64,000 nt of DNA from a virus (IMGVR_UViG_3300037859_000002:32001-96000), one strand, 5' to 3'. Shown: positions 1 to 23,307, numbered from the stretch's first letter. Made by a program: numbers and translations. The notes: generated by a model from the letters alone, not told the origin.

Positions 1-56
1 GATGAGCGGAAACGACAACAGGGCCCCCCGTCGAATTGACGGAGGAGCCCTGTTGC

Positions 57-452
57 TCATACCACTTTCACGTGCCTGTAGGCCCGCTCCAACCACTCCT
101 CGGCTGCGGTCAGCAGATGATGGCGGTAGCGGTAACTGCCCACGGCATCCCGAGCCTGCTGGCCGGTCGTGCCGTTGAGCATGATCAGGCTGGTGGGCGG
201 GTAGTCCGCGTAGGGTCGGGCCAGCAGCTCGCGCCACCCGACGTGAAACCAGATGATCGCCCCCGAAAGCCGATCGCCGAGCGCGCGCTCCACCAGGCGG
301 AGGGGCAGCGGCATCAGCGTCCGGATGTTCGTCTCGGGCAGGTCGACCAACAGGATGTCGGTGCTGGTGTCGATCATGCGCTGGATCGCGACCAGGAAGT
401 GGGCGGGATCGTCGTCGGATCCCAGACGCACGGTCATCAGTTCAACGTTCAT
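57..452 (-). CDS. hypothetical protein (early cluster 1)
   Basis: ORF MNVELMTVRL...; start moved to the ATG at 452, which follows a GGAG RBS lying inside hammerhead 458-532. Confidence 0.7.
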   Translation of the reverse strand: MNVELMTVRLGSDDDPAHFLVAIQRMIDTSTDILLVDLPETNIRTLMPLPLRLVERALGDRLSGAIIWFHVGWRELLARPYADYPPTSLIMLNGTTGQQARDAVGSYRYRHHLLTAAEEWLERAYRHVKVV

Positions 453-457
453 GGTGT

Positions 458-532
458 CTCCACTGATCACGCGCCCCGTGTGGGCGCGAGGCACGACCCA
501 CCCGGATGGGGGTGGGCCGGCCTTTCGTGGAG
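458..532 (-). ncRNA. type II hammerhead ribozyme-like element, G3-C8 core variant
   Basis: minus strand: CTCCAC GAA A GGC[hairpin]GCC T C GCGCCC ACACG GGGCGC GTGATCA GTGGAG; three stems, CUC triplet, core GUGAUCA. Confidence 0.75.
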
Positions 533-533
533 C

Positions 534-1703
534 CTAGGCCTTGGCCATCAGGTCGCCCGCGCGGCGTTCGAAGGCCACGCGTTCGTCCTGATAAGGGATG
601 GTCCGCGCGTGCGCGGTCATGCCCTGCACGACGTCCCAGATAGACGTCATCGGGTGCCCCTCCTCGCGGAGAACGGTCTCGATGATGTCTTTGGTGGTCG
701 GCTTCGGCAGGCCGAGCTTCTTGTGCAGAAACTCGAAACGCTGATCATCGTCCTTGGCGACAACCGTTGCCTTGGCGTCGATGACCTTGCTGGTCACCGC
801 GTTCGCCGCGGTGTGGGCAAAGCTCTCGATCTGGGGCTGTACCTCGTGGATGAACCGGTCGGGTGCACCGCTCGTGTGACGGATAGTGATCGACTTGTGG
901 TTCTCGGTGCCCCAAAGGCAGCGGTTCTGACAGACGGCGCGCAGATACATCGTCTGGATGTTCAGCGCTCGGCTTCCGGTCTCCGAATTGGAGACGATGA
1001 TGCCCGGGAACAGCAGGTCCGGCTGTCCGTCGGGGAGTTTGCCGACCTCGATCGGGAACTGATCGCGGCACAGGAAGATGAAGACATCGCGGTCCGAGGC
1101 GTACAGTGTGGTCGTCGCCTTGGTGACATCGACGTTGGGGTTGTAGGTCATCCGGCCCCAGTCGATGACGCCCGGCACCTTCCAGCTTTCGTCGAGACGC
1201 TCGTTGATGGCGCGGGCCACATCCAGGTCGAGGATGCGGCCATAGCCCGGGCTGGTGGCGGCTCGCAGCTGATCCGGCCCGCCCGCCTGATCTTCCTGCC
1301 AGAAGAGCTTCAGCACCTCGGCCGGGCTTTTGACCAGGCCATGCTGAAGACAGAGCCCGGAAAGAAAGGCCGGGATCTTGCGCAGGTAGGCGGCGGGCGA
1401 CTGGGTCCAGGTGCAGAGCTGCCCGAAAGCCCAGTGCGTCATCTGCATCTGGGCTCCACCGTCACGCTCGAGCAGGAGCGTATGGTTGTCGTCCGGGTTG
1501 GCGCTGACGCGCAGCTTCTTCGACTCGAAGGTGTTGGTTCGCGACAGGTCGGTCCGGTCGTGGAGGCTCGAGATGAGCGCATCCATCGACAGGAATTTCT
1601 GGTCATCAGGTCGTGAGAACCATTGCTGGCTCACGCTGGTGTTCAGGCTGCCGCGGGAGGCGGTGACAGCACGTACCCCAACGAGTGTGGTGTCAGTGTT
1701 CAT
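534..1703 (-). CDS. DUF932-family protein
   Basis: motifs LYASDRDVFIFL and NSETGSRAL...YLRAVCQNRCLWG...IRHTSGA typical of DUF932; AAGGAG RBS before the ATG at 1703. Confidence 0.75.
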   Translation of the reverse strand: MNTDTTLVGVRAVTASRGSLNTSVSQQWFSRPDDQKFLSMDALISSLHDRTDLSRTNTFESKKLRVSANPDDNHTLLLERDGGAQMQMTHWAFGQLCTWTQSPAAYLRKIPAFLSGLCLQHGLVKSPAEVLKLFWQEDQAGGPDQLRAATSPGYGRILDLDVARAINERLDESWKVPGVIDWGRMTYNPNVDVTKATTTLYASDRDVFIFLCRDQFPIEVGKLPDGQPDLLFPGIIVSNSETGSRALNIQTMYLRAVCQNRCLWGTENHKSITIRHTSGAPDRFIHEVQPQIESFAHTAANAVTSKVIDAKATVVAKDDDQRFEFLHKKLGLPKPTTKDIIETVLREEGHPMTSIWDVVQGMTAHARTIPYQDERVAFERRAGDLMAKA

Positions 1704-1749
1704 CGGTAGCTCCTTGTTGGGTGCGGCGGGTGGCGCGCCCAGGGGTGAT

Positions 1750-1833
1750 CCCGCGGCGCCGCCCACACAACCATGTGGTTGTGGGGCGCGCGCTTCGGCC
1801 GCCCCCGGGGTTGGGGGCGCCTCGTCAGGCGGG
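1750..1833 (-). ncRNA. type I hammerhead-like element, G15.1-C16.1 variant
   Basis: CCCGC CTGACGA GGCGCCCCC..GGGGGCGGCC GAA GCGC[long hairpin]GCGC C GCGGG; the core TGA is the stop codon of the upstream gene. Confidence 0.6.
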
Positions 1834-2193
1834 TGGTGCGCTCCGCTTCAGGATCTTGTCGGCGTTCCGGAGGAAGTGCGTTTTGTTGTTCAAGAAGGGA
1901 GTGAACAGGTCCTCGCTCTGACTCTCGGTAAGGCCAAAGAACTTGGCCAGCCTGGGGTCATCGCATCCGTAGATGGACCGACCGTCAATCTTTGGGACCT
2001 TGGAAGGCCGGATAAGGGTCAGGCCCTCGGCTTGCATTTCGGGCGTAAGGCCCGCATGGCCGATGACACAGCCAACGGTGCCGCAGCCTCCTTCAACCCC
2101 GAAACGGTAGATCCAGGTGCTCATCCTGACCTGGTCTTCGGGTATGCCGTCGATCAGGTCGCGCACGAATTTCAGTCTCTCGTAGGGTGTCAT
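1825..2193 (-). CDS. small CG(T/S)xxCxxGH-motif protein, paralog 1
   Basis: MTPYERL...CGTVGCVIGHAG...PEMQAEGL; similar to ORFs at 3657, 16825 and 17828. Confidence 0.8.
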   Translation of the reverse strand: MTPYERLKFVRDLIDGIPEDQVRMSTWIYRFGVEGGCGTVGCVIGHAGLTPEMQAEGLTLIRPSKVPKIDGRSIYGCDDPRLAKFFGLTESQSEDLFTPFLNNKTHFLRNADKILKRSAPPA

Positions 2194-2203
2194 TTCGTGT
2201 TTC

Positions 2204-2254
2204 CCTTTCGCCGCTGCTGGCGGCTCATCAGCTCGCACGCGGTGTGCGAGAAGG
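2204..2254 (-). ncRNA. type III hammerhead ribozyme
   Basis: CCT T CTCGCAC ACCGC GTGCGAG CTGATGA GCCGC CAGCA GCGGC GAA AGG; canonical core, short stem III. Confidence 0.8.
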
Positions 2255-2277
2255 CCCGGGGGCGGTGCCCCGGGGGC

Positions 2278-2715
2278 TCAGTCTTCGGCTGTTAGCGGTC
2301 GGTCCGCGTCATTCCAGGCACTCAGAGCGCTCATGAAGGCCCCGTGGGTCTCCAGGGCCCTGCCCTCGGGCTGGTGGCGCATCTCGCTCGCACCGCTCGA
2401 GAATTCTTCGACCAGGTCCGCCGACCAGGCGGCCTCTGCGTCCAAGACGCTCTGGTAGAGCGGATGCCGCTCTTTCGGCGCTTCCGGTCTGGCGTATTCC
2501 TCGGCTTCGAGTTGCTTCGCGATGACGAGTGTCTGCGCGGGCGTAACCTCAGAGCAGAGGTATTCATCCAGCGCGGTCTGGGCCAAGAGGCACGCCAAGC
2601 TGAGTGGGCACCGGGTCTCCACCGATCCCGGCAGGGATGCCTGCACGAGTTGGAGTGCCCGCGTGGCGCGCGCGACCTGCAGGAGGTCGTTGATGTCAGG
2701 ATCCAGGTTGCTCAT
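2278..2715 (-). CDS. hypothetical protein
   Basis: 145-aa ORF with coding-like composition, coupled to the upstream ORF by ATGA overlap. Confidence 0.65.
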   Translation of the reverse strand: MSNLDPDINDLLQVARATRALQLVQASLPGSVETRCPLSLACLLAQTALDEYLCSEVTPAQTLVIAKQLEAEEYARPEAPKERHPLYQSVLDAEAAWSADLVEEFSSGASEMRHQPEGRALETHGAFMSALSAWNDADRPLTAED

Positions 2716-2927
2716 TGAGGGAGCCCCAGATTCGCTTTGTCGACGAAGATGCGTACTTTCGGATCCAGCCGATACACATGCACGTCGAGCATGCCATCGT
2801 CCTGGCGGCGGAAACTGATCAGGCCGCCAAGGCCGGTCTTGCGATCGGTGAACTCAACGATGCGCTCTCTCGACTTGTCGGTGAAACTATCGGCCTGACA
2901 CTTCGTCAATACGAGAGGTCTTGGCAT
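2712..2927 (-). CDS. hypothetical protein
   Basis: 71-aa ORF starting just after hammerhead 2932-2992. Confidence 0.7.
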   Translation of the reverse strand: MPRPLVLTKCQADSFTDKSRERIVEFTDRKTGLGGLISFRRQDDGMLDVHVYRLDPKVRIFVDKANLGLPQ

Positions 2928-2931
2928 GGTC

Positions 2932-2992
2932 TTGCCTTTCGCGCGCCCGGTCTGGGGCGCTCATCAGCGCACATTTATATGTGCGAAGGCAA
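2932..2992 (-). ncRNA. type III hammerhead ribozyme with a CACAT-N4-ATGTG palindrome as stem I
   Basis: TTGCCT T CGCACAT ATAA ATGTGCG CTGATGA GCGC..GCGC GAA AGGCAA; canonical core, 6-bp stem III. Confidence 0.85.
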
Positions 2993-3024
2993 TGCCCCCA
3001 GGGCAAGGTCCCCGGGGGCATGGA

Positions 3025-3582
3025 TCAGCGGGCCGGGATCTTGCCCTTGTGGGCCTCGACCCGTCGGCGGATCGTTGACGCAAGCTCCGCGTACTCGCGG
3101 TTCACGGTCGCGGTCGCGTCGTTCAGCACCTGGTCGTCGGTCGGGCACTGGATGCTCGCCGTCGCCGGGTTCTGCTCGAGATACTGCGCCAGGGACACCC
3201 GCTGCTCATAGGCCATGCAGGTCATGCTGGCCCAGATGAAGAGCCGGCCCAGCCCCTCAGGGAGCGGGGCCTCCAAGCCTGGTGCATACAGGGCGCAGCA
3301 GATCTCCGCGGGGGCGCAGATCCAGGGCCGGAACCCGTAAACGATTTCCAGCCGCTGCGCGCGCACCTGTTTCGGGATGAAGGGCGGAATGTCCTTCTCC
3401 CAGCCGCCGCCGGGCTGGATGATCACGGGCCCGGTGACGTAGTGCTGATCGGCCTTGCTGAGGCCGGCGATGCCCATGGCTTCGTTGAGCTGCAACAGGA
3501 AGGCGGCGCTCATGCCCATGTGGGCCATGGCGCTCTGCAGTCGCAGGACGTCCATCGACATCGGCGTCTGCTGTGGTTTCAT
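3025..3582 (-). CDS. hypothetical protein
   Basis: ORF MKPQQTPMSM...; GAGGA RBS formed by the hammerhead core. Confidence 0.7.
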   Translation of the reverse strand: MKPQQTPMSMDVLRLQSAMAHMGMSAAFLLQLNEAMGIAGLSKADQHYVTGPVIIQPGGGWEKDIPPFIPKQVRAQRLEIVYGFRPWICAPAEICCALYAPGLEAPLPEGLGRLFIWASMTCMAYEQRVSLAQYLEQNPATASIQCPTDDQVLNDATATVNREYAELASTIRRRVEAHKGKIPAR

Positions 3583-3587
3583 CGGAG

Positions 3588-3659
3588 TGATCCTCATCAG
3601 CGCCGGCGGATCGCCGGCCGAGCTCGCGGCCGCACGCGGCGGCCGGAGCTTTCGGATCA
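3588..3659 (-). ncRNA. type II hammerhead ribozyme
   Basis: TGATCC GAA A GCTC[hairpin]GAGC T C G GCCGGCG ATC CGCCGGC G CTGATGA GGATCA; G.G mismatch at 1.1/2.1. Confidence 0.8.
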
Positions 3660-4031
3660 GTCTTCAACAGGCTCTTCGAGCAGTCGGTCCATCAGAGCGA
3701 GCTGCCGGGCCTTGGTCAGTTCGGAGGTGCGGTCATTTTCGATGTAGAACAAGGTCCGTGCCGCGGCCTCACTGATGCCAAAGAATACGGCCAGGGCCGT
3801 GTCCGTAGCGGTCCACCCATGAAGGGTAAGGAGCCGCTGCGGGGACAGCTTCAGTCCTTCGGCTTGAAGGACCGGATCCATGCCGCCGTGGCCGGCGATG
3901 CAAGCCACGGTGCCGCAAACGGATTGCCACTTGTTCATGTCGATCAACATGGCCGGCGTCTCGGCAATGATCTCGCGGAGGCGGGCGAGACGCTGCCGCG
4001 GCCTCAGGCTTGGAATGGTTCCACTTCCCAT
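3657..4031 (-). CDS. small CG(T/S)xxCxxGH-motif protein, paralog 2
   Basis: PRQRLARLREII...CGTVACIAGHGGMDPVLQAEGL. Confidence 0.8.
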   Translation of the reverse strand: MGSGTIPSLRPRQRLARLREIIAETPAMLIDMNKWQSVCGTVACIAGHGGMDPVLQAEGLKLSPQRLLTLHGWTATDTALAVFFGISEAAARTLFYIENDRTSELTKARQLALMDRLLEEPVED

Positions 4032-4035
4032 CGGG

Positions 4036-4107
4036 TGATCCTCTTCATGGGGATGATTCCCCGACCGTTCCCCCTGAGTCAAAGCCCAGGGGGCCGGTTT
4101 CGGATCA
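4036..4107 (-). ncRNA. type II hammerhead-like element, C3A variant
   Basis: TGATCC GAA A CCG[hairpin]CGG T C GGGGA ATCA TCCCC ATGAAGA GGATCA. Confidence 0.7.
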
Positions 4108-4596
4108 GTAGCCATTGCCCACTTCGGTGACGTGGGCGTGCCGCACGTCGTTGGGGCTGAGCTCGACCGCCGCGCGGTCGCGCAGGTGGTCGAGCATATC
4201 GGCCCAGACGCGGCTGGACGGATCGTCCATGCCGGCCTCTGCCAGGTCGGCGGCCTTGACCCGGTCGGGAGCCTCGATCGTGGTGGTGAAGCGCAGGACC
4301 GTGGTGAGCGTGACATCGATGGTCACCTCGTGCCTGGTCTTTGTCGTCCCCGCCACGATCTGCGCGCACAGTGCCTCGAAATCGAGGCGGTCGAGCATCT
4401 CGTCCCCAGCCTGGTAGGCGCGAACGATGAGGACCCTGTTGTCGGACAGCAGGGTCGTCGGGACCGCGCCGGTCTTGGCCCTGAGATAGGCCGCGACCGG
4501 CGCCTCGGTTCCGTCGCTCATGCGCGCCAGGTAGGTCTTGAGGTCCATCGCCGACGGGCAGTTGCTCTCGTCGACGACGGTGACGTCGTAGTTCAT
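4105..4596 (-). CDS. hypothetical protein
   Basis: 163-aa ORF with GAGGAG RBS. Confidence 0.75.
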   Translation of the reverse strand: MNYDVTVVDESNCPSAMDLKTYLARMSDGTEAPVAAYLRAKTGAVPTTLLSDNRVLIVRAYQAGDEMLDRLDFEALCAQIVAGTTKTRHEVTIDVTLTTVLRFTTTIEAPDRVKAADLAEAGMDDPSSRVWADMLDHLRDRAAVELSPNDVRHAHVTEVGNGY

Positions 4597-4600
4597 GGGA

Positions 4601-4669
4601 TGAGCTCCTCTGGTCCGTTATTGGACGAGGCGGGCGCCGCCCATCGGGCGACGGCGCGCCTTTCGCTCA
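4601..4669 (-). ncRNA. type II hammerhead-like element, U4A variant
   Basis: TGAGC GAA A GGCG[hairpin]CGCC T C GTCC AATAAC GGAC CAGAGGA GCTCA. Confidence 0.7.
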
Positions 4670-5371
4670 CTCCTCTCGACCATGGTGCAGCTCGTGCTGC
4701 AGCAGGTCGCGATGGTGCAGGTACTCCGAGTGGTGGGCCTCGAGGATTGCGTCGCTGGCGACGAGCCTGATGTTGTTGCCCAGGCCGGCGCGCTGATCCA
4801 GCAGCAGCTGCTGCAGGCAGGCGAGCAGGTCGAAATCGACGTGCTCGCTCTGCTTCGACGCCCGGGACCAGGCGGTCATGCGCGCCTTTGCCTCCTCGGC
4901 GGAGGAGGCGCGCACAAACACCGGGTAGGTGAACTCGGGGAGCTGCAGGGTGGCGGTGACCGCGTAGAGGCGTTCACCCCCTCTGAGCTGGCCGAGCAGG
5001 CCCTCGGTGGCCCTGTTTTGCGGCACGGCCTCGAAGGGCCGGTCGCCGTGCTCGGGGTGATCGTCGATCGCGCTCATGTTTGCGATCGAGGCGATCGGGT
5101 CGGGGTTGTCGTCGTCGCCTTCCCTGGATGTCCAGTCGGTACCCCGGAGCATACGCCAAACCTGGCGGAAGCTGGGGTCTGCCATGGTGTCTGGCGCGAC
5201 GCTCATTTGTCGGCCGTCATGGGTGGCGACGAGGACCGGGTCCCCGGTGGCGGTGGCGTTGATCACCGCGAGCTTCTCGCGCGCGGTGGCCGCCAGTGCG
5301 ATCGCCTTGTCGAGATCGACGTACTCGAAATCATCGGGCCCGTCCTCGAAGGCGATGGTGCAGAGTTCCAT
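4667..5371 (-). CDS. hypothetical protein (acidic)
   Basis: 234-aa ORF with GAGGA RBS. Confidence 0.75.
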   Translation of the reverse strand: MELCTIAFEDGPDDFEYVDLDKAIALAATAREKLAVINATATGDPVLVATHDGRQMSVAPDTMADPSFRQVWRMLRGTDWTSREGDDDNPDPIASIANMSAIDDHPEHGDRPFEAVPQNRATEGLLGQLRGGERLYAVTATLQLPEFTYPVFVRASSAEEAKARMTAWSRASKQSEHVDFDLLACLQQLLLDQRAGLGNNIRLVASDAILEAHHSEYLHHRDLLQHELHHGREE

Positions 5372-5376
5372 GCGGT

Positions 5377-5444
5377 CCTCTTGTCAATGAGCGGGATTGC
5401 TCATGAGCGCCAGGCCCCGCATTGGGGGCCTGGGGCTTTCGAGG
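5377..5444 (-). ncRNA. type II hammerhead-like element, U3-A8 variant
   Basis: CCTC GAA A GC[hairpin]GC T C A TGAGC AATCCC GCTCA TTGACAA GAGG; same AATCCC loop and extra base as element 17194-17262. Confidence 0.65.
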
Positions 5445-5858
5445 GTCAGCGTGGCTTGGGCGCCTTGCGTGGCTGGCGCCTGGGCGCCGAGCGACGAAGG
5501 AGCGGGGGCCAGCCCGGGCTCATGGTCCGGGATGGCTGGGCGAGCCGCGTGGCCAGCCGGATGGGCTGGCTCAGTCGCAGCGTCGGTGGTCGGTCTGGGT
5601 CCATGGGTGACCTCATCGGCGGCGCGGGATTGCGCCGGAGCGCCTGGGCGCTTTCGGTCACATCTCTGATATGGGGATTGGCCCGCTCGGGTGCAACCGC
5701 GATTCCATGGTTGTGGAATCAGTGGTGGAGGCGTAGGGTCTGCGTCTCGCCCAAAGAGGCGACGGCCCCGGTTTGAACGCCCGGGGCCGTCCATATCTCG
5801 GGCCGGAGCGACATCCGGCGGCGAGCGCGCTGGCCCAGTAGACGCTGGGCTTGGCCCA

Positions 5859-5887
5859 TACATATTGCGTGTGGACCGGGCGTGCAA
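5859..5887 (-). promoter_or_regulatory. putative sigma70-type promoter for leftward cluster 1
   Basis: TTGCAC-N17-TATGTA on the minus strand in an AT-richer divergent gap. Confidence 0.5.
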
Positions 5888-5920
5888 GTGAAAATCTGGT
5901 ATCAGGCCGCGTCTACGGCT

Positions 5921-5934
5921 CACATTTAGATGTG
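5921..5934. promoter_or_regulatory. operator-like palindrome CACAT-N4-ATGTG
   Basis: CACATTTAGATGTG next to the RBS of the initiator gene; recurs across the window. Confidence 0.75.
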
Positions 5935-5944
5935 AGGTGCTGCC

Positions 5945-6991
5945 GTGAACGTCTCGTACATCAATTTCGTCGCCACGGGCTGGGCCTGGGCGCAGCCGAC
6001 CGCGAATGCTGGGGCCAAGCTGCTGCTGCTGGCCCTGGCCGGCCACGCTGACCCGTGGGGGAGCGCCCGCCCGGCGCTGCCCCGGTTGCAGGCGCTGACC
6101 GGGCTGTCGCGCTCCGGTCTGTTCAAGGCCATGGCCGAACTCGAAACCCTGGGCCTGATCAAGAAGCGCTCGGGCGGCGGGGTCGTCAATGAATACATTC
6201 TCAAGTGGGATGGGGAGCCCGGCCCGTTCGTGGTGCTGACCGAGCCTGCGGCACCCGTCCCCCCAGTGGACGGGGGGGTCCGCCCAGTGGACGGGCCTCC
6301 CCAGAGTGAACGGGTCCACTCGGTGGACTCACCCCGTCCACTCGGTGGACTCCACCCGTCCACTCGGTGGACTCAACCCGTCCACTCGGTGGACTCCACC
6401 CGTCCACCCAGTGCACCCGAAGATATTAGAGAAGAGATAAGGGAAGAGATAAGGGAAGAGATTAGGGAAGAGAACAACAGCGCGCGTGCGCGCGCGACCA
6501 CTCTCGCGGGGGCGCCCGAACCCGCCGCCGGTCCCGCGGTGACACCCCCTGCCGCTGAGGAGGTCTGCGACGCGACCAGTACCCCGGAAAAACCGCGAAG
6601 GTCAAAGATTCCTAGTCGCGTGCCTTCGGGCGACCTGCCGGCCGAATGGCTCAGCGCAGCCAACGCCGGTCGCGCCAAGCTCGGCCTCCCCGAAATCGGC
6701 GCCCGCGAGGCCATCGCCCGATGGCTCAACTTCCAGGCCTTCTGGGAGGGCGTCACCGGCCCCAAGGGCCTGAAGGTCGACTGGCGTCGCTGCTGGCTCG
6801 AGGGTGCGCGCAACCCCAAGGCCGACCACCACTACGAGGATTTCGCCCAGCCCGACGCTGAGGAGCCGCCGGCGCCGCGGACCGACCACCAGGCGGACGC
6901 CGAGTTCCTGACCGATCCTGAATTCGGGGCCCGCAACCGCGCCAAGCTCGCGCTGCTCGAATCCCTGGTCGCCGGGAGGTCCCGCCTGTGA
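5945..6991 (+). CDS. phage replication initiator (N-terminal HTH, internal ori)
   Basis: N-terminal AKLLLLALAGHAD...PALPRLQALTGLSRSGL HTH; internal iterons; C-terminal FQAFW...DWRRCW; directly upstream of the primase-helicase. Confidence 0.8.
   Translation: MNVSYINFVATGWAWAQPTANAGAKLLLLALAGHADPWGSARPALPRLQALTGLSRSGLFKAMAELETLGLIKKRSGGGVVNEYILKWDGEPGPFVVLTEPAAPVPPVDGGVRPVDGPPQSERVHSVDSPRPLGGLHPSTRWTQPVHSVDSTRPPSAPEDIREEIREEIREEIREENNSARARATTLAGAPEPAAGPAVTPPAAEEVCDATSTPEKPRRSKIPSRVPSGDLPAEWLSAANAGRAKLGLPEIGAREAIARWLNFQAFWEGVTGPKGLKVDWRRCWLEGARNPKADHHYEDFAQPDAEEPPAPRTDHQADAEFLTDPEFGARNRAKLALLESLVAGRSRL
6314..6476 (+). repeat. origin of replication: four 22-bp iterons (GTCCACTCGGTGGACTC core) plus a purine-rich 12-bp repeat tract
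   Basis: repeats at 6314, 6336, 6358, 6380 and a partial copy at 6402; then GAAGAGAT(A/T)AGG-type repeats; lambda-O-like arrangement. Confidence 0.75.
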
Positions 6992-8853
6992 CGGCACTCG
7001 ACCTGCACGCGGCCCTCGATCGCGAGGGCATCCGGATCCCCGCGACCACGCCGGGCAAGACCTTCGATGCGCTGTGCCCCCGCTGCAACGGCGGTCGCGC
7101 CCGGGAACGGAACTTCCGGGTCACGATCGACGACGACGGCAAGGGCGCCGTCTGGCTCTGCAACCGGGCGAACAACTGCGGTTGGACCGACAGCGTCCGC
7201 ACCGGCCCCCGGGATCCGAGTGCGCCGCGCGCGCGCAAGGACCGGGCCCCGCCGGTAAAGCCCGAACCGATCCCGCCCGAGCAGCAGGATCGGCGCCTGC
7301 CGCTCTACGCCTGGTGGGCCAGGCGCCGGATCTCGGCCGAAACCGTGGACGCCCTGGGCGTGTTCACGACGTCCATGCGGTTGCCGCGTTTCGATGCCGA
7401 GGGGCGCCCCGTGCTGGATGACCAGGGCAAGCCCGTCTGGCAGGACCAGGAGGCCATGGTGTTCCCCTACGTGCACCACGGCGAGGTCGTGAACCACAAA
7501 TACCGCTGGTCGCCCAAGAAATTCCGCCAGGATCGACACAGCCGGCGCACGCTCTTCAACGCCGACAGCCTCGAGGCCGACGATCTGGGGATCATCGTCG
7601 AGGGTGAGGCCGATGTGCTGGCCCTGTGGGAGGCCGGGTACCGTCAGGTCGTCTCCCTGCCCGATGGGGCGCCCCCCCGGGTCAGCGACACCTATGACCC
7701 GGAGAATGACGATGACGACCGGTATGAGGCGCTGCGGACCGAGGAGCGCTTCCAGCGTCTGAAGCGCATCGTCATCGCCGTCGATACCGACGACGCGGGC
7801 CGGGCGCACGCCGAGGAGATCGCGCGCCGCATGGGCAAGGAGCGCTGCTGGCTCGTGGAGTGGCCCCGCAAGGACGGGGGCGACGTGCTGCGCGAGCTTG
7901 GGCCCGAGGCCGTGCGTGCCGCGGTCGAGGGCGCGCGACCCTATCCGATGCCGGGCATCCTCGATGGGCGGGCCCTGGGCGAGCGCGTGGCCGCCGAGCG
8001 CCAGGGCCAGCGCGATACCGGCTATGCCTGCGGGATCGACGATCTGGATGGCCTGTTCCGGTTCTCGCGCGAGGAGGGCACCTTCGCGGTCGTCACGGGC
8101 GTGCCCGGCTACGGCAAGACCGTGACCACGATCGCCTACTCCGTGTTGTTGGCCGAGCAGGCTGATGCGCGGGGCGAGCCCTGGCACACGCTGATCTGCT
8201 CGCCCGAGATGCGGGCCGTCGATCTGGTGAAGAACATCGTCGCGGCCAAGGCGCGCCAGCCCTTCTACGATGGCAAGAGCGGCCCGGGCATTGCCCCCGA
8301 GGACCTGCCGGCGCTGATGGACTGGGTCAACGCGCACTACACGTTCCTGGAGCCTGACGATGCGGCCGATGATCCGACGCTCGACTGGATCATCGAGTGT
8401 GTGCGCCTGTCGCATCGCCGGAACCGGACCAGGCTGGCGATCATCGATCCCTGGAACGAGATCGAGATCGGCTACCCGCCCGACAGGAGGATGACCAACG
8501 ACGAGTGGATTGCGAAGCAGTTGCAGCGGATCCGCAAGCTCGTGGTCGAGCTCGCCTGTTCGGTCGTGGTGGTCGCCCACCCGAAGAAGATCGAGCGCGA
8601 GAAGAAGGGGGGTAAGCTCAGGGTGCCGACCGGCTACGACATCGCCTACTCGGCGGGCTGGAACAACAAGCCCCAACTGGGGATCACCGTGCACCGGGCG
8701 GAGCACGACAAGACCGACGAGCTGGAGTTTCACGTCTGGAAGGCCAGGCAGGGTCATCTGTCGAAGCGCGACAAGGTGGTCGTGCGGTTCAGCCCGGTGA
8801 CCAAGCGGTTGCTGCCCAAGATGACTCCGGTCGCCTATGGCGCGGTCGGATAA
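6988..8853 (+). CDS. primase-helicase (T7 gp4/Twinkle-like: Zn finger, TOPRIM, SF4 helicase)
   Basis: CPRC...CNRANNC; VEGEADVLAL; DTDDAG; Walker A GVPGYGKT; IIDPWN; VAHPKK. Confidence 0.9.
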   Translation: MTALDLHAALDREGIRIPATTPGKTFDALCPRCNGGRARERNFRVTIDDDGKGAVWLCNRANNCGWTDSVRTGPRDPSAPRARKDRAPPVKPEPIPPEQQDRRLPLYAWWARRRISAETVDALGVFTTSMRLPRFDAEGRPVLDDQGKPVWQDQEAMVFPYVHHGEVVNHKYRWSPKKFRQDRHSRRTLFNADSLEADDLGIIVEGEADVLALWEAGYRQVVSLPDGAPPRVSDTYDPENDDDDRYEALRTEERFQRLKRIVIAVDTDDAGRAHAEEIARRMGKERCWLVEWPRKDGGDVLRELGPEAVRAAVEGARPYPMPGILDGRALGERVAAERQGQRDTGYACGIDDLDGLFRFSREEGTFAVVTGVPGYGKTVTTIAYSVLLAEQADARGEPWHTLICSPEMRAVDLVKNIVAAKARQPFYDGKSGPGIAPEDLPALMDWVNAHYTFLEPDDAADDPTLDWIIECVRLSHRRNRTRLAIIDPWNEIEIGYPPDRRMTNDEWIAKQLQRIRKLVVELACSVVVVAHPKKIEREKKGGKLRVPTGYDIAYSAGWNNKPQLGITVHRAEHDKTDELEFHVWKARQGHLSKRDKVVVRFSPVTKRLLPKMTPVAYGAVG

Positions 8854-8912
8854 CACACACAGATGTCTTTTCTGGCCTTGGCGCCACATTCAAGTGTGTC
8901 TATCATGCGCAG

Positions 8913-16827: not shown

Positions 16828-17184
16828 GGCGGGTCGGTCAGGATGGTAGTCGAGCGCGCGCTTCAGCCGTGCGACCAGCGTACGTGGCTTGCTCTCGAGG
16901 CCGAACAGCGACTCGGACACCTGCTTTGTGATGCCAAAGAACACGGGTCCGATGGACTCGCTGCGGACTTCCTGTTCCCCGACAAAGGGGAACAACATGC
17001 GCCCGTCGTCGAACAGGTGGCGCAGCGTCAGTCCCTCGTTCTGCATCTCGGGCGTCATGGCCGCGTGGCCGATGATGCACCCGGGGCTGCCACAGAAGTC
17101 GGTCCAGCGGGTCATCACCAGCTGATCGGGCGGAATGCTCGCCGCCAGGTCGGTGACGAAGGCCAGCCTCTCGTAGGGTGTCAT
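16825..17184 (-). CDS. small CG(T/S)xxCxxGH-motif protein, paralog 3
   Basis: MTPYERLAFV...CGSPGCIIGHAAMTPEMQNEGL. Confidence 0.8.
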   Translation of the reverse strand: MTPYERLAFVTDLAASIPPDQLVMTRWTDFCGSPGCIIGHAAMTPEMQNEGLTLRHLFDDGRMLFPFVGEQEVRSESIGPVFFGITKQVSESLFGLESKPRTLVARLKRALDYHPDRPA

Positions 17185-17193
17185 GCGCGTGGT

Positions 17194-17262
17194 TCCTCTT
17201 CAGGCCCGCGGGATTGCGGGCAGAGCGGCCCCGCCGCGGTGCGACGGGGTGCTTTCGGATCA
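17194..17262 (-). ncRNA. type II hammerhead ribozyme
   Basis: TGATCC GAA A GC[hairpin]GC T C T GCCCGC AATCCC GCGGGC CTGAAGA GGA. Confidence 0.8.
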
Positions 17263-17463
17263 GTCTTCGGGAGGCGCCCTCACCACGGGATACGGGTAGC
17301 CCAGCGCGGTCATGACCCGTTCGTGGATCTCGCACGCGTGGTCCCGGTCTTCCTCGTTCCAGGTGGGGCGGCCCTGCCGGCGGCGCCGGCGGTGGGCCGC
17401 GTCGGTGCCCGCCGCGTGGGCGAGCCCGAGGGCCTCCTGGTAGCTGTCAGCGCGGATGGGCAT
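17260..17463 (-). CDS. small hypothetical protein
   Basis: YQEALGLAHAAGTDAAHRRRRRQGRPTWNEEDRDHAC. Confidence 0.65.
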   Translation of the reverse strand: MPIRADSYQEALGLAHAAGTDAAHRRRRRQGRPTWNEEDRDHACEIHERVMTALGYPYPVVRAPPED

Positions 17464-17752
17464 CGACGCCCTCGCCGTTGACGGCGTGGCCCACCAGGGT
17501 GCCGTAGCGGCGCCTGGTCGCGTGGGCCATCATGGCCAGGGCTTCGCGCACGCGGCGGGCATCGGCCGCGATCGACAGGAGCTCCGTTTCGGGCACCTGT
17601 TCGACCCCCTCGGGAAAGCGTTGCTGGATCTGCTCGGCGATGTCCTGCACGAGCCTGCAGCAGGCTTTCATCTGGGTGGCCACGGCGTTGCCCGAGGGCA
17701 TGGAGTCGAGCGCGAGCGTGAGCCAGTCGTCGGGCAGTTGGTGTTGAGGCAT
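17447..17752 (-). CDS. hypothetical protein (helical)
   Basis: 101-aa ORF after hammerhead 17758-17830. Confidence 0.7.
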   Translation of the reverse strand: MPQHQLPDDWLTLALDSMPSGNAVATQMKACCRLVQDIAEQIQQRFPEGVEQVPETELLSIAADARRVREALAMMAHATRRRYGTLVGHAVNGEGVDAHPR

Positions 17753-17757
17753 CTGGT

Positions 17758-17830
17758 TGATCCTCTTCAGTGCCGGCGATGGTGCCGGCCGAGCGTCCCC
17801 GCCGCGATGCGACGGGGCGCTTTCGGATCA
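17758..17830 (-). ncRNA. type II hammerhead ribozyme
   Basis: TGATCC GAA A GCG[hairpin]CGC T C G GCCGGC ACCATC GCCGGC A CTGAAGA GGATCA. Confidence 0.8.
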
Positions 17831-18208
17831 GGTTGTGACCGGCTCTTTCAAAAGCCGGTCGATCAGGGCCAGCTGCCGGTCCTTGGTCTGGTGCCGGGGC
17901 CGGGCATCATCGGAATAGAACAGCACGGTCCCGGCGTCGTTGCTGATGCCGAAGAACTCGGACAGGCCGATGTTGCCGACGGGGTTGCCGTTGACGGTCG
18001 GCGAAGGCCAGGGGCCATCGGTCAGCTCCAGGCCCTCGGCCTGGAGGACCGGATCCTGGGCACCGTGGCCCGCGATGCACGCGGTGGTGCCGCACTGTGA
18101 AACCCAGGCGCTCATGTGGATTGCTTGGGCCGGTGTGTTGGCGATGACCTTGCGCAGGCGGGCCAGCCGCTGTCGCGGCGTCAGGCCAACGGGTTCCGGG
18201 TCTGTCAT
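17828..18208 (-). CDS. small CG(T/S)xxCxxGH-motif protein, paralog 4
   Basis: TPRQRLARLRKVI...CGTTACIAGHGAQDPVLQAEGL...RQLALIDRLLKEPV. Confidence 0.8.
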   Translation of the reverse strand: MTDPEPVGLTPRQRLARLRKVIANTPAQAIHMSAWVSQCGTTACIAGHGAQDPVLQAEGLELTDGPWPSPTVNGNPVGNIGLSEFFGISNDAGTVLFYSDDARPRHQTKDRQLALIDRLLKEPVTT

Positions 18209-18214
18209 TGGTTT

Positions 18215-18284
18215 GCTCCTCTTCAGGCCCGCGGGATTGCGGGCGACCGCCCCGCCCCGGTGTGGGGCGGGGGGTTTCGTCAGC
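18215..18284 (-). ncRNA. type II hammerhead ribozyme (canonical, GUC)
   Basis: GCTGAC GAA A CC[hairpin]GG T C GCCCGC AATCCC GCGGGC CTGAAGA GGAGC. Confidence 0.8.
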
Positions 18285-18459
18285 GCGTCGTGGCCGTTTG
18301 CTGGGGCGCCATGGTGCGGACCAGTCGCTGGCGCAGGGCCTCGACCCTGTTCCAGGCCGTCCAGTCGGTGGCCTGGCTCTGGGTCGCCACCTGCTGACCG
18401 TAACTGGTCAGCGCCGTGATCAGCGTCAGCAGCTCGTCCTCGTCGAGGGCGATGTTCAT
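18280..18459 (-). CDS. small hypothetical protein
   Basis: MNIALDEDELL...; ATGA-coupled to the upstream ORF. Confidence 0.65.
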   Translation of the reverse strand: MNIALDEDELLTLITALTSYGQQVATQSQATDWTAWNRVEALRQRLVRTMAPQQTATTR

Positions 18460-18842
18460 GCGCGGGGCGCCGCCAGGTAGCGTGCGATCCGAACGGCCGA
18501 CTGCTCGTCCAGCCAGTCCAGGAGCTGGGCCTTCATCAGGTCCGCCACCGGGCCATCGTTGAGTTCGGGACGCTGCTCGCGCAGGCTTTCGGCCAAGCGG
18601 CGCCACGAGCTGGGCTGCAGGGTCAGGCCCTGCTCAGCGAGCGCGGCGCGAATGTCCGCGGTGCAAAGCAGGACGTGGCCCAGCCGGACCGCGAGTTCCT
18701 CGAGCAGGGCCCGGCCCTCCTCGATGGTGGGCTCGCGACCGAAGGTCGCGCACCAGATGCGCGCGCAGATTTCGGCGATGTCGGCCGCCCGATCGCGGAG
18801 CGTGCGCTCGGGCGCGGCCTCGAAGACGGATTGTTCCTCCAT
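18456..18842 (-). CDS. hypothetical protein
   Basis: MEEQSVFE...; GAGGA RBS. Confidence 0.7.
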   Translation of the reverse strand: MEEQSVFEAAPERTLRDRAADIAEICARIWCATFGREPTIEEGRALLEELAVRLGHVLLCTADIRAALAEQGLTLQPSSWRRLAESLREQRPELNDGPVADLMKAQLLDWLDEQSAVRIARYLAAPRA

Positions 18843-18854
18843 CGGAGTGGGTCC

Positions 18855-18919
18855 TCTCGTTTCGCGCCCACGAACCGGCGGGCGCTCGTCGGCGCCTCTC
18901 ACATGAGAGGCGAACGAGA
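18855..18919 (-). ncRNA. type III hammerhead-like element, U4C variant
   Basis: TCTCGT T CGCCTCTCA TG TGAGAGGCG CCGACGA GCGCCCG..TGGGCGC GAA ACGAGA. Confidence 0.75.
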
Positions 18920-18949
18920 TACACTTAAATGTGGTGAGCCGGGAGTCAA
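18920..18949 (-). promoter_or_regulatory. putative promoter (TTGACT -35) with operator-like CACATTTAAGTGTA
   Basis: directly downstream of a terminator and upstream of hammerhead 18855-18919. Confidence 0.55.
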
Positions 18950-18953
18950 ATGG

Positions 18954-18988
18954 AAAGGCCCCCCACCCGGAAAAGGGTAGGGGGCCTT
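18954..18988 (-). terminator. rho-independent terminator
   Basis: AAGGCCCCCTACCC TTTTCC GGGTGGGGGGCC TTT. Confidence 0.6.
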
Positions 18989-18999
18989 GCGCGCGAGGG

Positions 19000-19209
19000 T
19001 CAGGCGCGGCGCATCTGGCGCAGACCCTCGCGGGTCGACCTGGCGCCGCCGCAGATGGCCCGATGGGCCACCGCGGCTGCGGCTCTGGTGCGCCGAAGCA
19101 TCTCCTGCTCGTCGAGCTTGATCTCGCCGGTCAGGCTGTCCTGCAGGTCCTGCAGGGTATCGCGGGCCGCGGCCAGCGCATCGCGCACATAATCGGGCTG
19201 CTTGGGCAT
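19000..19209 (-). CDS. small hypothetical protein
   Basis: MPKQPDYVRDALAAARDTL...; AGGAG RBS. Confidence 0.65.
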   Translation of the reverse strand: MPKQPDYVRDALAAARDTLQDLQDSLTGEIKLDEQEMLRRTRAAAAVAHRAICGGARSTREGLRQMRRA

Positions 19210-19227
19210 GGTATGTGCTCCTGGCCC

Positions 19228-19328
19228 CGGCTGCCTCTTCGGCACAGGATGGGGGCCCACATCGCTGTGGATGCACGCCGCGGCTCCTTCCTCGCGGGAG
19301 GGGCGCGCGCGCGCATTTCGATCAGCCG
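19228..19328 (-). ncRNA. type II hammerhead-like element, U4C variant
   Basis: CGGCTGATC GAA A TGCGCGC[..]GCGTGCA T C CACAG[..]CTGTG CCGAAGA GGCAGCCG. Confidence 0.65.
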
Positions 19329-19561
19329 CGCTCGGTGCGCGCGGTCCGGCTCGGATCATCCGGATCTGCGGCTTCGAAGGCGCGGTGGTCATAGGTCGTG
19401 GTCTCGCCCTGCTCGAGGTCCCAGTCGACGCCAAACTCATCATCGGCGGCGATCCTGACCGCCTCTTCGACGGTGCGGGCCATGACGATGCCCGTGTGAC
19501 AGAGACACTGGTCGACATAGCGGTGGACCACGAATTCTCGCTCCGGTGGGTCGGCGCTCAT
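19322..19561 (-). CDS. small hypothetical protein
   Basis: ...VMARTVEEAVRIA... motif; GGAGG RBS. Confidence 0.7.
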   Translation of the reverse strand: MSADPPEREFVVHRYVDQCLCHTGIVMARTVEEAVRIAADDEFGVDWDLEQGETTTYDHRAFEAADPDDPSRTARTERG

Positions 19562-19573
19562 GCGCGCGTTCCT

Positions 19574-19629
19574 CCCTTTCGCCGGCGGCTGGCCGGCTCG
19601 TCAGCCCCCACCAGGTGGTGGGGAAAGGG
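19574..19629 (-). ncRNA. type III hammerhead ribozyme
   Basis: CCCT T TCCCCACCA CC TGGTGGGGG CTGACGA GCCGGC CAGCC GCCGGC GAA AGGG. Confidence 0.85.
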
Positions 19630-19653
19630 GCCGCCCCCCGCAGGGGGCGGTCG

Positions 19654-19896
19654 TCAGTCCCGTCGGTCGATCCAGTAGCGCGGCACCCGATGATCGGGTG
19701 GGAAGCCGAAGCTCCCATCCTGCTCGAGGGTGACCACGATGGTCTCGGGGGTCTCGATCGCGACGGTGTCGACCACGACGAGCTCGAACTGGAATGTCGT
19801 GTTCGTGCTGTCGGCGTCGGCGTAGCGGTCGCCCGCGAGGTCGATGACCGACCCCGGTGTGAGGTCGGCCACCCGAACCATTTCGGGCGCGATCAT
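19654..19896 (-). CDS. small beta-rich hypothetical protein
   Basis: MIAPEMVRVADLTPGSVIDL...GSFGFPPDHRV. Confidence 0.65.
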   Translation of the reverse strand: MIAPEMVRVADLTPGSVIDLAGDRYADADSTNTTFQFELVVVDTVAIETPETIVVTLEQDGSFGFPPDHRVPRYWIDRRD

Positions 19897-20153
19897 CCTG
19901 TGCGATCCCATCCTCCGGGATGGCCAGGACGTGGGGTGATCATCGTCACCCTGGGGCGTCGGCGCCGCCACTCGTGCAGCGCCAGCAGCCCGTAGAAGGT
20001 CGTGGCCGCGGCGCCTGTCGTCAGCGCCGCGGCCCACATGATCTGCTGCACCGTCGGGTCGTCCTCGAAGATGAGGAACACGCCGGTCGCGGCAAAGATC
20101 ACGCCGGCGACTCCGCTGATGCCCAGCAGGGCAAAGCCGAGAAGTCGGTACAT
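19893..20153 (-). CDS. small two-TM membrane protein
   Basis: two hydrophobic helices followed by RRRR. Confidence 0.7.
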   Translation of the reverse strand: MYRLLGFALLGISGVAGVIFAATGVFLIFEDDPTVQQIMWAAALTTGAAATTFYGLLALHEWRRRRPRVTMITPRPGHPGGWDRTG

Positions 20154-20161
20154 GGGTCGTT

Positions 20162-20219
20162 CCCTTTCGCCGGCATGCTGGCCGGCTCATCAGTCCGCCC
20201 CATCAGGGAGCGGAAAGGG
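20162..20219 (-). ncRNA. type III hammerhead ribozyme
   Basis: CCCT T TCCGC T CCC TGAT GGG GCGGA CTGATGA GCCGGC CAGCAT GCCGGC GAA AGGG. Confidence 0.85.
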
Positions 20220-20269
20220 CGACGCGCCCGCCCCAGCCTTGGGGCCAGAGCGGGCGCGCGTCGTTGGTT

Positions 20270-20497
20270 TCAGGCCGCCAGGGCTTCGTCAGAGGGCGGG
20301 GTCGCCCTGCTGGACTTGCGCCACTCGTAGACCGCACCTGCCACGCAGGTGACGGCCATCAGGGCGTTGACCGCGATGTTGAGGCCCGGTACCAACATGG
20401 TGCCCGCGCGCATCATCGGGAGCCAGGCAATGGCCAGGCCGGTGAAGCCCACCGCCGAAGCGGCGTAGATGCGGGCGTTCATTTTGTTGCTGGTCAT
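20270..20497 (-). CDS. small two-TM membrane protein
   Basis: MTSNKMNARIYAASAVGFTGLAIAWL... Confidence 0.7.
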   Translation of the reverse strand: MTSNKMNARIYAASAVGFTGLAIAWLPMMRAGTMLVPGLNIAVNALMAVTCVAGAVYEWRKSSRATPPSDEALAA

Positions 20498-20506
20498 GAT
20501 GTGTTC

Positions 20507-20561
20507 CCCTTTCGCCGCAGACTGGCGGCTCATCAGGCCCCACACGCTGTGGGGTCGAGGG
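20507..20561 (-). ncRNA. type III hammerhead ribozyme
   Basis: CCCT C GACCCCACA GCG TGTGGGGC CTGATGA GCCGC CAGTCT GCGGC GAA AGGG; near-copy of element 15921-15976. Confidence 0.85.
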
Positions 20562-20597
20562 TGGGTGCCCCCACACAGGGGGCACCCAACAGGAAGA

Positions 20598-20825
20598 TCA
20601 CGCGGCCTGCTCCAGGGCCTTGTCCTGGGGCTTGCCCAGGTAGCGGGCCGCCACGTTGGCGCCCACGGCGACAACGACGCCCCCGACCGCGATGGCGCCC
20701 AAAACGGGCGCCGTCATCGGAACCAGCGGCAGCAGCAGCACCGCCAACCGGTAGCCCGCCAGACCAGAGGTCAGCAGGCCCGCGGTCTCGGCCACGGCAG
20801 CGATCTTCTTCGTGTTGAAGGTCAT
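20598..20825 (-). CDS. small two-TM membrane protein
   Basis: MTFNTKKIAAVAETAGLL...; AGGAG RBS. Confidence 0.7.
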   Translation of the reverse strand: MTFNTKKIAAVAETAGLLTSGLAGYRLAVLLLPLVPMTAPVLGAIAVGGVVVAVGANVAARYLGKPQDKALEQAA

Positions 20826-20837
20826 CGGATCGATCTC

Positions 20838-20914
20838 CTGAGTGATGATGCGTTCGCCCCTTGCCAAAGGGGCCTCGTCAGCCGGGCTCATTGGCTACCC
20901 GGTCGCACACTCAG
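20838..20914 (-). ncRNA. type III hammerhead-like element, C15.1-G16.1 variant
   Basis: CTGAGTG TGCG A CCGGGT..GCCCGG CTGACGA G GCCCCTT TGGC AAGGGGC GAA CGCA TCAT CACTCAG. Confidence 0.6.
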
Positions 20915-21013
20915 AATCGTCGTTGACATACCGTATGTGGTGATTCTCCACATATATTCAACCACTTAGGCGCAGAAAAGCTCCGAAAATGCACCGAAAA
21001 TGGTCGATCCCAC

Positions 21014-22068: not shown

Positions 22069-22180
22069 GGCGATCAGGCCCGTTACTTTGGAAACTGTAG
22101 GTCGTCCGTTCAAATCGGACCAGCGGTCGCAAGGCTGCTGTAGCTCAGCCTGGTAGAGCAACGGTATGAAACGGACCGCC
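22069..22180 (+). ncRNA. yrlA: YrlA-like Y RNA (permuted tRNA-like domain)
   Basis: GGCG..CCGTTACTT..ACTGT AGGTC [T arm GTCCG TTCAAAT CGGAC] [acceptor-like CAGCGGTC GCAA GGCTGCTG] TA [D arm GCTC AGCCTGGTA GAGC] A ACGGT ATGA AACGG AC CGCC; order T-AS-D with ends paired. Confidence 0.7.
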
Positions 22181-22603
22181 CTAAATTCCGGCGGCAACTG
22201 CTAACCCATCCGGCCAGGGGTTGTGGCCGGGGACCGAGATGAGTGCCCCGCGAGGGGAGCCAAGCCCCCACAGGGGGCCGCCCGGTTGATCACCGGGCGC
22301 TCGGAGGAATTCAGTTCTGCGGTGGCCGGTACGAAGCGCGAGCAAAGAACCTCGTCGCCCCACGGGCAACCTTACAGTAGGGGCTGGCTACGCCCGGCAC
22401 ACGCAAGTGGGATGCCGGCAACGTCGCAAAGCCAGTTCGGCCGCCCGGGACGCCGGGGCGCTCGGCCGACGTGTTGGCCATCGCAGAAGCCAGCTGATTT
22501 GGGGTGGTGTTCTCGGCCCGCATTTCGTGGGCCAAAGCCTTGATAAAACGAGCGTATGTGCTGGTGCCCTTGAGCTGGTCTGGCCATCGCGGAAGCCTTC
22601 GGA

Positions 22604-22680
22604 TGCAGGGTAGAGCAGCCCGGTAGCTCGTCTGGCTCATAACCAGAAGGTCGCCCGTTCGAATCGGGCCTCTGCAACCA
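22604..22680 (+). tRNA. tRNA-Met (CAT), fMet-like D arm
   Basis: cloverleaf with TGCAGGG/CTCTGCA acceptor, TCTGG CT CAT AA CCAGA anticodon arm, TTCGAAT T loop and encoded CCA. Confidence 0.9.
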
Positions 22681-23232: not shown

Positions 23233-23307
23233 GCCCCGCTAGCTCAATGGCAGAGCGCCCCCTTTGTAAGGGGATGGTTGCCGGGTCGAAACCGGCGCGG
23301 GGCTCCA
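23233..23307 (+). tRNA. tRNA-Thr (TGT), slightly atypical (G54)
   Basis: GCCCCGC/GCGGGGC acceptor, GCTC/GAGC D arm, TT TGT AA loop, GTCGAAA T loop, CCA. Confidence 0.8.

Follow-up and report, generated by a model that had tools for sequence, protein, structure and literature searches.

Hammerhead ribozyme motifs with patterned core variation at the gene junctions of two early operons of a temperate phage

The 64,000-nt window analyzed here (IMGVR_UViG_3300037859_000002:32001-96000) comprises bases 32001-96000 of a 111,211-base IMG/VR provirus record with a G+C content of ~68%, and all positions below are counted from its first base unless stated otherwise. The one sequencing run listed as containing this DNA is a DNA run of an algae metagenome, possibly the source sample; no RNA run was listed. 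Within 21 kb of this window, 23 hammerhead motifs, 12 of type II, 10 of type III and one of type I, lie on the minus strand and occupy almost all gene junctions of two leftward early operons (458-5661 and 14459-20908), nine in the left array and 14 in the right. The core bases G5, A6, A9, G12, A13 and A14 are present in all 23 copies, and C3, U4 or G8 of the CUGANGA box is non-consensus in eight. The interpretation that we favor, with moderate confidence, is that these are working hammerheads splitting two early messages at their gene junctions, with positions 3, 4 and 8 loosely constrained, variants at these positions tolerated and probably slower, and the swaps reflecting a pair between positions 3 and 8.

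The motifs were located by descriptor scans for the three hammerhead topologies, in which G5, A6, A9 and G12-A14 were required and positions 3, 4, 7 and 8 were left free. A MAFFT alignment of all hammerheads was poor, and descriptor scans and covariance models were used instead: six type II copies served to build a first model (R1), which was rebuilt from 20 hits (R2), while the type III copies rest on the descriptor scan and its controls. The 23 copies are listed below, with the core string giving positions 3 to 9.

458-532 (-), type II, core GUGAUCA (G3-C8 swap), predicted to be cut between 488 and 487; flanked by the DUF932 gene (534-1703) and the gene at 57-452
1750-1833 (-), type I hammerhead-like motif, core CUGACGA, 15.1-16.1 is G-C; less certain than the others
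2204-2254 (-), type III, canonical core CUGAUGA, U17
2932-2992 (-), type III, canonical core CUGAUGA, U17
3588-3659 (-), type II, core CUGAUGA, G.G at 1.1/2.1; upstream UGA stop in the 5' strand of stem II
4036-4107 (-), type II, core AUGAAGA (A3 with G8)
4600-4670 (-), type II, core CAGAGGA (U4A), short stem I
5377-5444 (-), type II, core UUGACAA, two parses possible
5607-5661 (-), type II, core CCGAUGA (U4C), 6-bp stem II
14459-14514 (-), type III, core UUGAAGA (U3.G8 wobble); last element of the right-hand array
15316-15378 (-), type III, core CUGACGA, G.A at 1.1/2.1
15921-15976 (-), type III, core CUGAAGA
16440-16510 (-), type II, core CUGAAGA; best match to Rfam Hammerhead_II
16757-16827 (-), type II, core CUGAAGA, G.G at 1.1/2.1; identical 76-nt copy in a third array
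17191-17262 (-), type II, core CUGAAGA, extra U after C17 (unpaired 1.1)
17758-17830 (-), type II, core CUGAAGA, G.A at 1.1/2.1
18214-18282 (-), type II, core CUGAAGA, stem II of one Watson-Crick pair plus tandem A.G/G.A
18855-18919 (-), type III, core CCGACGA (U4C), U17
19234-19321 (-), type II, core CCGAAGA (U4C), 2-bp stem II, long stems I and III; weakest type II copy
19574-19629 (-), type III, core CUGACGA, U17
20162-20219 (-), type III, core CUGAUGA, U17
20507-20561 (-), type III, core CUGAUGA
20848-20908 (-), type III hammerhead-like motif, core CUGACGA, 15.1-16.1 is C-G, A17; first element of the right-hand array

An earlier note on this DNA had counted 23 hammerheads and described a library of core variants among them. 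The count was reproduced, with 19 copies inside 458-19328 and four more at 19574, 20162, 20507 and 20848, and all the core strings that it quoted are present on the minus strand; the positions that it gives mark the low (3') end of each motif, and CCGAAGA belongs to the copy at 19234-19321. The purine-purine oppositions that it reported at 1.1/2.1 (G.G at 3588 and 16757, G.A at 15316 and 17758) and the extra base after C17 (an A at 5377, a U at 17194) were likewise recovered. Core deviations beyond those noted then are U4C at 5607-5661 and a changed 15.1-16.1 pair at 1750-1833 and 20848-20908. Beyond the window, the same strand carries a third array, at record positions 106999-110746 (75000-78746 in window numbering), with seven type II and two type III hammerheads; among these nine are the exact copy of the 16757 element and two further copies with the core AUGAAGA (A3). 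The whole 111-kb record thus contains 32 hammerheads.

The eight copies in which C3, U4 or G8 is replaced are those at 458, 4036, 4600, 5377, 5607, 14459, 18855 and 19234, and a box with C3, U4 and G8 is not shared across the window set. The 15.1-16.1 pair is A-U in 21 of the 23, with the exceptions at 1750 and 20848, and at position 17, 16 copies have C, six U and one A, whereas none has G. Counting deviations at C3, U4, G8 or 15.1-16.1 together, six of the nine copies in the left array are deviant versus four of 14 in the right. The invariance of G5, A6, A9, G12, A13 and A14, as first read from the sequence, was retained when the scan no longer demanded it: allowing one mismatch among these six bases returned the 23 exact copies in the arrays and no one-mismatch copy. 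On the opposite strand, used as a control, one-mismatch matches exceeded exact ones 16 to 1, as chance predicts, and arrays of two other phages gave 22 and 27 exact copies with one-mismatch matches at background level. Therefore, the invariance is not an artefact of the search, because the relaxed scan adds nothing in the arrays, yet such matches dominate background DNA.

Positions 3 and 8 vary together. Both position 8 changes seen in the window come with a complementary base at position 3 (permutation P = 0.004), and in a pooled set of 89 hammerheads from four phage records (the window's phage and the records L037, G003 and G005) six swapped Watson-Crick pairs represent an enrichment (stratified permutation P = 1.4e-4), although both P values overstate independence, many copies being paralogues. 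The pooled combinations at 3/8 are C-G in 42 of 89 copies, A/G in 27, U.G in 9, U-A in 5, C/A in 4, G-C in 1 and G/G in 1. In this set A8 (nine copies) occurs only with U3 or C3 and never with A3, though A3 makes up 30% of copies, and the single C8 copy has G3. Moreover, U4 is replaced only in copies with C3 (seven of seven), so that the U-turn (CUGA) never deviates at two bases at once, a pattern with a chance probability of ~1 in 100. The covariation of positions 3 and 8 is real, yet the pair is not obligatory, as the A/G and G/G copies and, in the window, the 4036 copy demonstrate; with A/G, U.G, C/A and G/G together this frequent, mismatched copies at position 3 are not exceptional but represent a common state that has been retained. 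We also considered whether G8A is tied to the register of the ribosome-binding site, and dropped the idea, since G at position 8 would serve that site no worse.

The earlier note had presented as established that C3-G8 is a tertiary pair tolerating compensatory swaps. This is correct, in view of the rescue by C3G+G8C (PMC9901934) and of natural U3-A8 copies (PMC3088659, PMC4209133). Its further argument, that two independent swaps in the window point to selection on the catalytic fold, stands in part: the swap at 458 is clean, but that at 5377 is ambiguous, and the statistical weight comes from other phages. In a second parse of 5377, chosen by the model aligner, 1.1-2.1 is A-U and position 3 is missing. 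The reading as U3-A8 plus an extra A seems preferable to us, given that 1.1 is also unpaired in the 17191 copy and in one copy of the third array. The minimum-energy fold of 458 pairs G3 with C17, and this predicted pairing would compete with the active fold.

The helices are supported by covariation as well. Model R2 finds 34 type II matches in the window and L037, all on the transcribed strand and with E-values down to 7e-15. In its alignment all 20 modelled pairs change on both sides, and 88.5% of cells are paired versus 67% in shuffles and 35-43% with partners slid, figures from an alignment fitted to the structure of the model and so favoring that structure. Most copies, among them the variants at 458, 4036, 5377, 5607, 14459 and 18855, adopt a three-way junction in the unconstrained minimum-energy fold; stem II is only 1-2 bp long at 18214 and 19234. 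The descriptor returned only loose matches with non-consensus cores on the opposite strand of the window, in 0.96 Mb of other viral loci (the L037 array excepted) and in 1.4 Mb of alphaproteobacterial loci. Rfam at gathering thresholds reported two tRNAs and no hammerhead in the window; in E-value mode it gave three sub-threshold Hammerhead_II (RF02276) matches of 31, 22.7 and 19 bits, and did not report the type III copies at E up to 10. A twister-sister match in the same search (5394-5466, minus strand, 22.5 bits versus 34) is explained by the overlapping hammerhead at 5377 and does not represent a second ribozyme class.

Each motif is fused to translation signals. In type II copies such as 16757-16827, the UGA stop of the upstream gene lies in the 5' strand of stem II, the end of the core and the 3' strand of stem II form a Shine-Dalgarno-like sequence, and the start codon of the next gene follows mostly 2-8 nt past the motif (18 nt at 19234). 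In type III copies the GAAA box and the 3' strand of stem III act as the Shine-Dalgarno-like sequence, and in the type I copy at 1750 U4-G5-A6 of the core is itself the UGA stop of the upstream gene. The ribosome-binding site thus overlaps the core or the open helix in all copies, but in different places: in type II it overlaps the CUGANGA box and not the GAA box, while in type III it overlaps the GAAA box and stem III and not the CUGANGA box. Each box is therefore also kept in a topology where translation cannot explain its conservation, and no other observation argues as strongly for selection on catalysis or, at the least, on the catalytic fold. Together with the six bases that remain invariant in a search no longer demanding them and with the covariation of the helices and of positions 3 and 8, these data support the proposal of selection on the catalytic core fold. 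A promoter-like sequence (TTGACT, a spacer of ~16-17 nt, TAAGTG) adjoins one motif, lying at 18920-18960 on the minus strand directly upstream of the 18855 hammerhead; because of it, this ribozyme may be the most 5' element of a transcript and remove a short leader.

Similar arrays were found in other phages. L037 (IMGVR_UViG_3300047174_000111, 96.6 kb) carries 22 type II hammerheads in 15 kb and G003 (IMGVR_UViG_3300012974_000540, 93 kb) carries 27, with the same architecture of stop codon and ribosome-binding site in both; G005 has about eight good copies and some in which invariant bases are broken. The classes A3, U3.G8, U3-A8, U4A and U4C recur in these independent arrays, and in G003 A3 is the majority core state (16 of 27). 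Within the window phage, several matches between its arrays (3588-4109, 15907-16009, 16755-16830 and 17754-17832, each against the third array) span the hammerhead module alone, over 75-82 nt at 95-100% identity, while the flanking genes are unrelated and only a few longer matches (~71-90% identity) extend into neighboring genes. Judging from these matches, the modules behave like cassettes or recombination joints for gene shuffling. Other searches were negative, and no close relative of the window phage was found: viral contigs contain no near relative of the DUF932 protein (534-1703), whose best homologues are 54% identical; among 80 viral and 80 bacterial loci surrounding homologues, L037 alone had an array; a primase-helicase search returned nothing in the viral or bacterial collection; blastn of 14000-21000 against phage records gave no match; and an exact pattern for the UGAUCC-type stem II gave only low-GC chance matches. 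Loop I often reads AAUC(C/A), both in the window phage (5377-5444, 5607-5661, 16440-16510, 17191-17262 and 18214-18282) and in the unrelated L037 array, which suggests a candidate conserved tertiary contact.

In the mechanism that we propose, the 23 hammerheads would be transcribed within two long leftward early messages of a temperate phage. Each would fold into the three-helix junction and cut itself after position 17, splitting the message at nearly all gene junctions. The upstream piece would then end in a GC-rich hairpin, and the downstream piece would begin with stem I and carry a ribosome-binding site composed of the 3' part of the core and the open helix. Selection would keep G5, A6, A9, G12, A13 and A14, nearly always A15.1-U16.1, and a base other than G at position 17, with a weaker constraint on positions 3, 4 and 8 in this phage family. 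Where position 8 has changed, position 3 is complementary or wobble-compatible (G3-C8, U3-A8, C3/A8), the signature of the known tertiary pair between the two; G8 is combined with C, A, U or rarely G at position 3, and U4 may become C or A only where position 3 is C. The variants are probably tolerated states, slower to differing degrees and drifting within the limits set by selection, and not a per-gene program.

Several observations weigh against working ribozymes at all junctions. In a comprehensive mutagenesis, single and double mutants of the CUGA turn all had low activity in vitro except C3G+G8C (PMC9901934), from which A3, U3 with G8, U4C and U4A are predicted to be slow or dead in that construct. 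No copy attains the Rfam gathering score (best 31 bits, at 16440, versus 37 for RF02276), and purine-purine 1.1/2.1, unpaired 1.1, the short stem II at 18214 and 19234 and the non-A-U 15.1-16.1 at 1750 and 20848 break the acceptance rules of Perreault et al. In addition, G5-A9 in type II copies doubles as the Shine-Dalgarno sequence, so that part of the core conservation there has a second explanation. In an alternative, which we regard as unlikely, the variants no longer cut and the fold is kept as a 3' protective hairpin, a mask of the ribosome-binding site, an insulator or a recombination joint. Besides the low activity of single C3 or U4 changes in vitro, it draws on the stacking of deviations outside the core in several copies (weak stem II at 18214 and 19234, mismatched or unpaired 1.1), on the overlap of the ribosome-binding site with core or open helix in all copies, which supplies a non-catalytic reason for partial conservation, and on the broken copies in G005, which show that decay occurs in some arrays. 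However, the GAA box, A15.1-U16.1 and C17 are kept in all type II variants although they have no translation role, U4 variants always retain C3 without a second U-turn deviation, changes at position 8 are matched at position 3, and the A3 paralogues kept the whole core while their stem III diverged. None of this would be expected once catalysis was lost.

A different reading, to which we give slightly less credence still, is that each core variant was selected to set a cleavage rate, and hence the ratio of cut to uncut message and the level or timing of a gene. The confinement of variation to 3, 4, 8, 15.1/16.1 and 1.1/2.1 while the catalytic bases never vary, the recurrence of the same classes in independent phages, the concentration of variants in the left array and the conditional activity of slow phage variants raised by Perreault et al. 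(PMC3088659) are all in line with such tuning. However, modules that move as 75-80-nt cassettes between unrelated junctions fit poorly with variants tailored to genes, the A3 majority in G003 looks like a family-wide default rather than a gene-by-gene setting, and the variants could not be related to types of gene, since a known function is lacking for nearly all the flanked genes. That the motifs are GC-rich intergenic hairpins merely resembling hammerheads, and the swaps parsing artefacts, is very improbable. Hairpins are frequent in a genome of 68% G+C, a loose descriptor matches many places, 5377 has two parses, and 1750, 19234 and 20848 are individually weak. In contrast, compact matches with a full core are confined to the transcribed strand of the arrays, none occurs in 2.4 Mb of control loci apart from the genuine arrays of other phages, and the variant copies share stems and loops with canonical neighbors and paralogues. 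For the set as a whole chance is largely refuted, and it survives only for the three weakest copies just named. We retain tolerated variation of working hammerheads as the preferred interpretation.

Clustered hammerheads in prophages, natural U3-A8 pairs and slow phage variants are already published. Perreault et al. (2011) described single prophage genes bordered by multiple hammerheads of types I, II and III in Azorhizobium caulinodans, Agrobacterium tumefaciens and Clostridium scindens, observed in vitro cutting of three tandem prophage sets, and proposed that long phage messages are processed into single-gene pieces (PMC3088659). The same study documented a natural U3-A8 and slow, perhaps conditionally active, core variants in phages, and stated that the core matches the consensus almost without exception (PMC3088659). 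As in those prophage clusters, the hammerheads here stand between prophage operon genes, several per transcript. In contrast to the tested tandem sets of about three, the present hammerheads number 23 over 21 kb and 32 over the full 111-kb record; C3, U4 or G8 is replaced in about a third of the cores, and the published acceptance rules would reject the copies with a mispaired 1.1-2.1 or a changed 15.1-16.1. The core strings of the window were not found in the supplementary files of PMC3088659. U3-A8 also occurs in hammerheads of Penelope-like retroelements (Cervera and de la Pena 2014, PMC4209133); here it is represented by 5377, in one of its two readings, and by four further copies in three other phage records. 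Unlike these natural U3-A8 systems, the present family also has G3-C8, C3/A8, U3.G8, A3/G8 and G3/G8. In the pairwise mutagenesis of a type III hammerhead by Roberts et al. (2023), C3G+G8C restored activity with strong positive epistasis (PMC9901934). The 458 copy carries this same swap, there a laboratory mutant in one construct, and the other CUGA-turn changes, of low activity there, are common in the phage arrays. Rfam RF02276 (with RF00008 and RF00163, clan CL00010) describes the same architecture and core, yet the family models do not annotate the arrays.

In RiboJ-type insulators and hammerhead aptazymes, a self-cutting hammerhead placed ahead of a gene gives it a standard 5' end, and a masked ribosome-binding site can be released by the cut. 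Unlike these engineered single parts, the motifs described here are natural, recur at each junction and contain the upstream gene's stop codon. No report of a natural G3-C8, of recurrent natural A3 or U4C/U4A, or of arrays this dense was found in the open papers searched, and nothing relevant on embedding of the ribosome-binding site or on C3A was found there either. A 2019 review lists the biological role of bacterial hammerheads as open (PMC6765202). The arrays would be compatible with roles in splitting early messages, stabilizing messages or gating translation.

No small ribozyme has been studied more closely than the hammerhead, and its core is taken as fixed in searches, in Rfam models and in acceptance rules. 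The window phage and at least three other phage records instead carry dozens of copies per genome in which the catalytic bases are kept and positions 3, 4 and 8 vary in a patterned way, and current family models overlook a whole class of putative phage message-processing elements. The 89 natural sequences provide a test set for how far core rules from the laboratory hold in natural, tertiary-stabilized contexts. More tentatively, in phage hammerheads fused to a ribosome-binding site the textbook C3 might not be required, and A3/G8 (also U3.G8, C3/A8 and U4C) might support useful self-cleavage, a possibility that we hold with rather low confidence. Cleavage with A3/G8 would perhaps proceed through a non-Watson-Crick 3-8 pair or with help from a terminating or initiating ribosome. 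If C3 is indeed dispensable, the arrays would be graded series of cleavage rates, the hammerhead consensus would have to be revised, and the failure of family models to detect such copies would be explained.

The genes read in the window are those of a tailed phage. As judged from G+C by codon position, small minus-strand genes form two blocks, 1-6400 and 13900-20900, that flank plus-strand replication genes. Nearly all of these small genes lack a family assignment; two with a recognizable family or likeness are included below, and one further gene of the blocks is a weak DUF3846 match.

534-1703, DUF932 protein, small-gene block, family recognized
6988-8853 (+), primase-helicase
12546-13265 (+), C1/Cro-type repressor
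14549-15301, RusA-like or clamp-like protein, small-gene block
22604-22677 and 23233-23304, two tRNAs (Rfam at gathering thresholds)
24037-25602 (+), large terminase

Tandem repeats at 6255-6420, both direct and inverted, separate the left array from the divergent replication genes; they are iteron- or operator-like in appearance, and they cause spurious matches to microRNA families in Rfam. Just upstream of both tRNA genes, at 22076-22181 on the plus strand, lies a sub-threshold match to YrlA (Y RNA-like; 34.6 bits versus 69) with a tRNA-like module.

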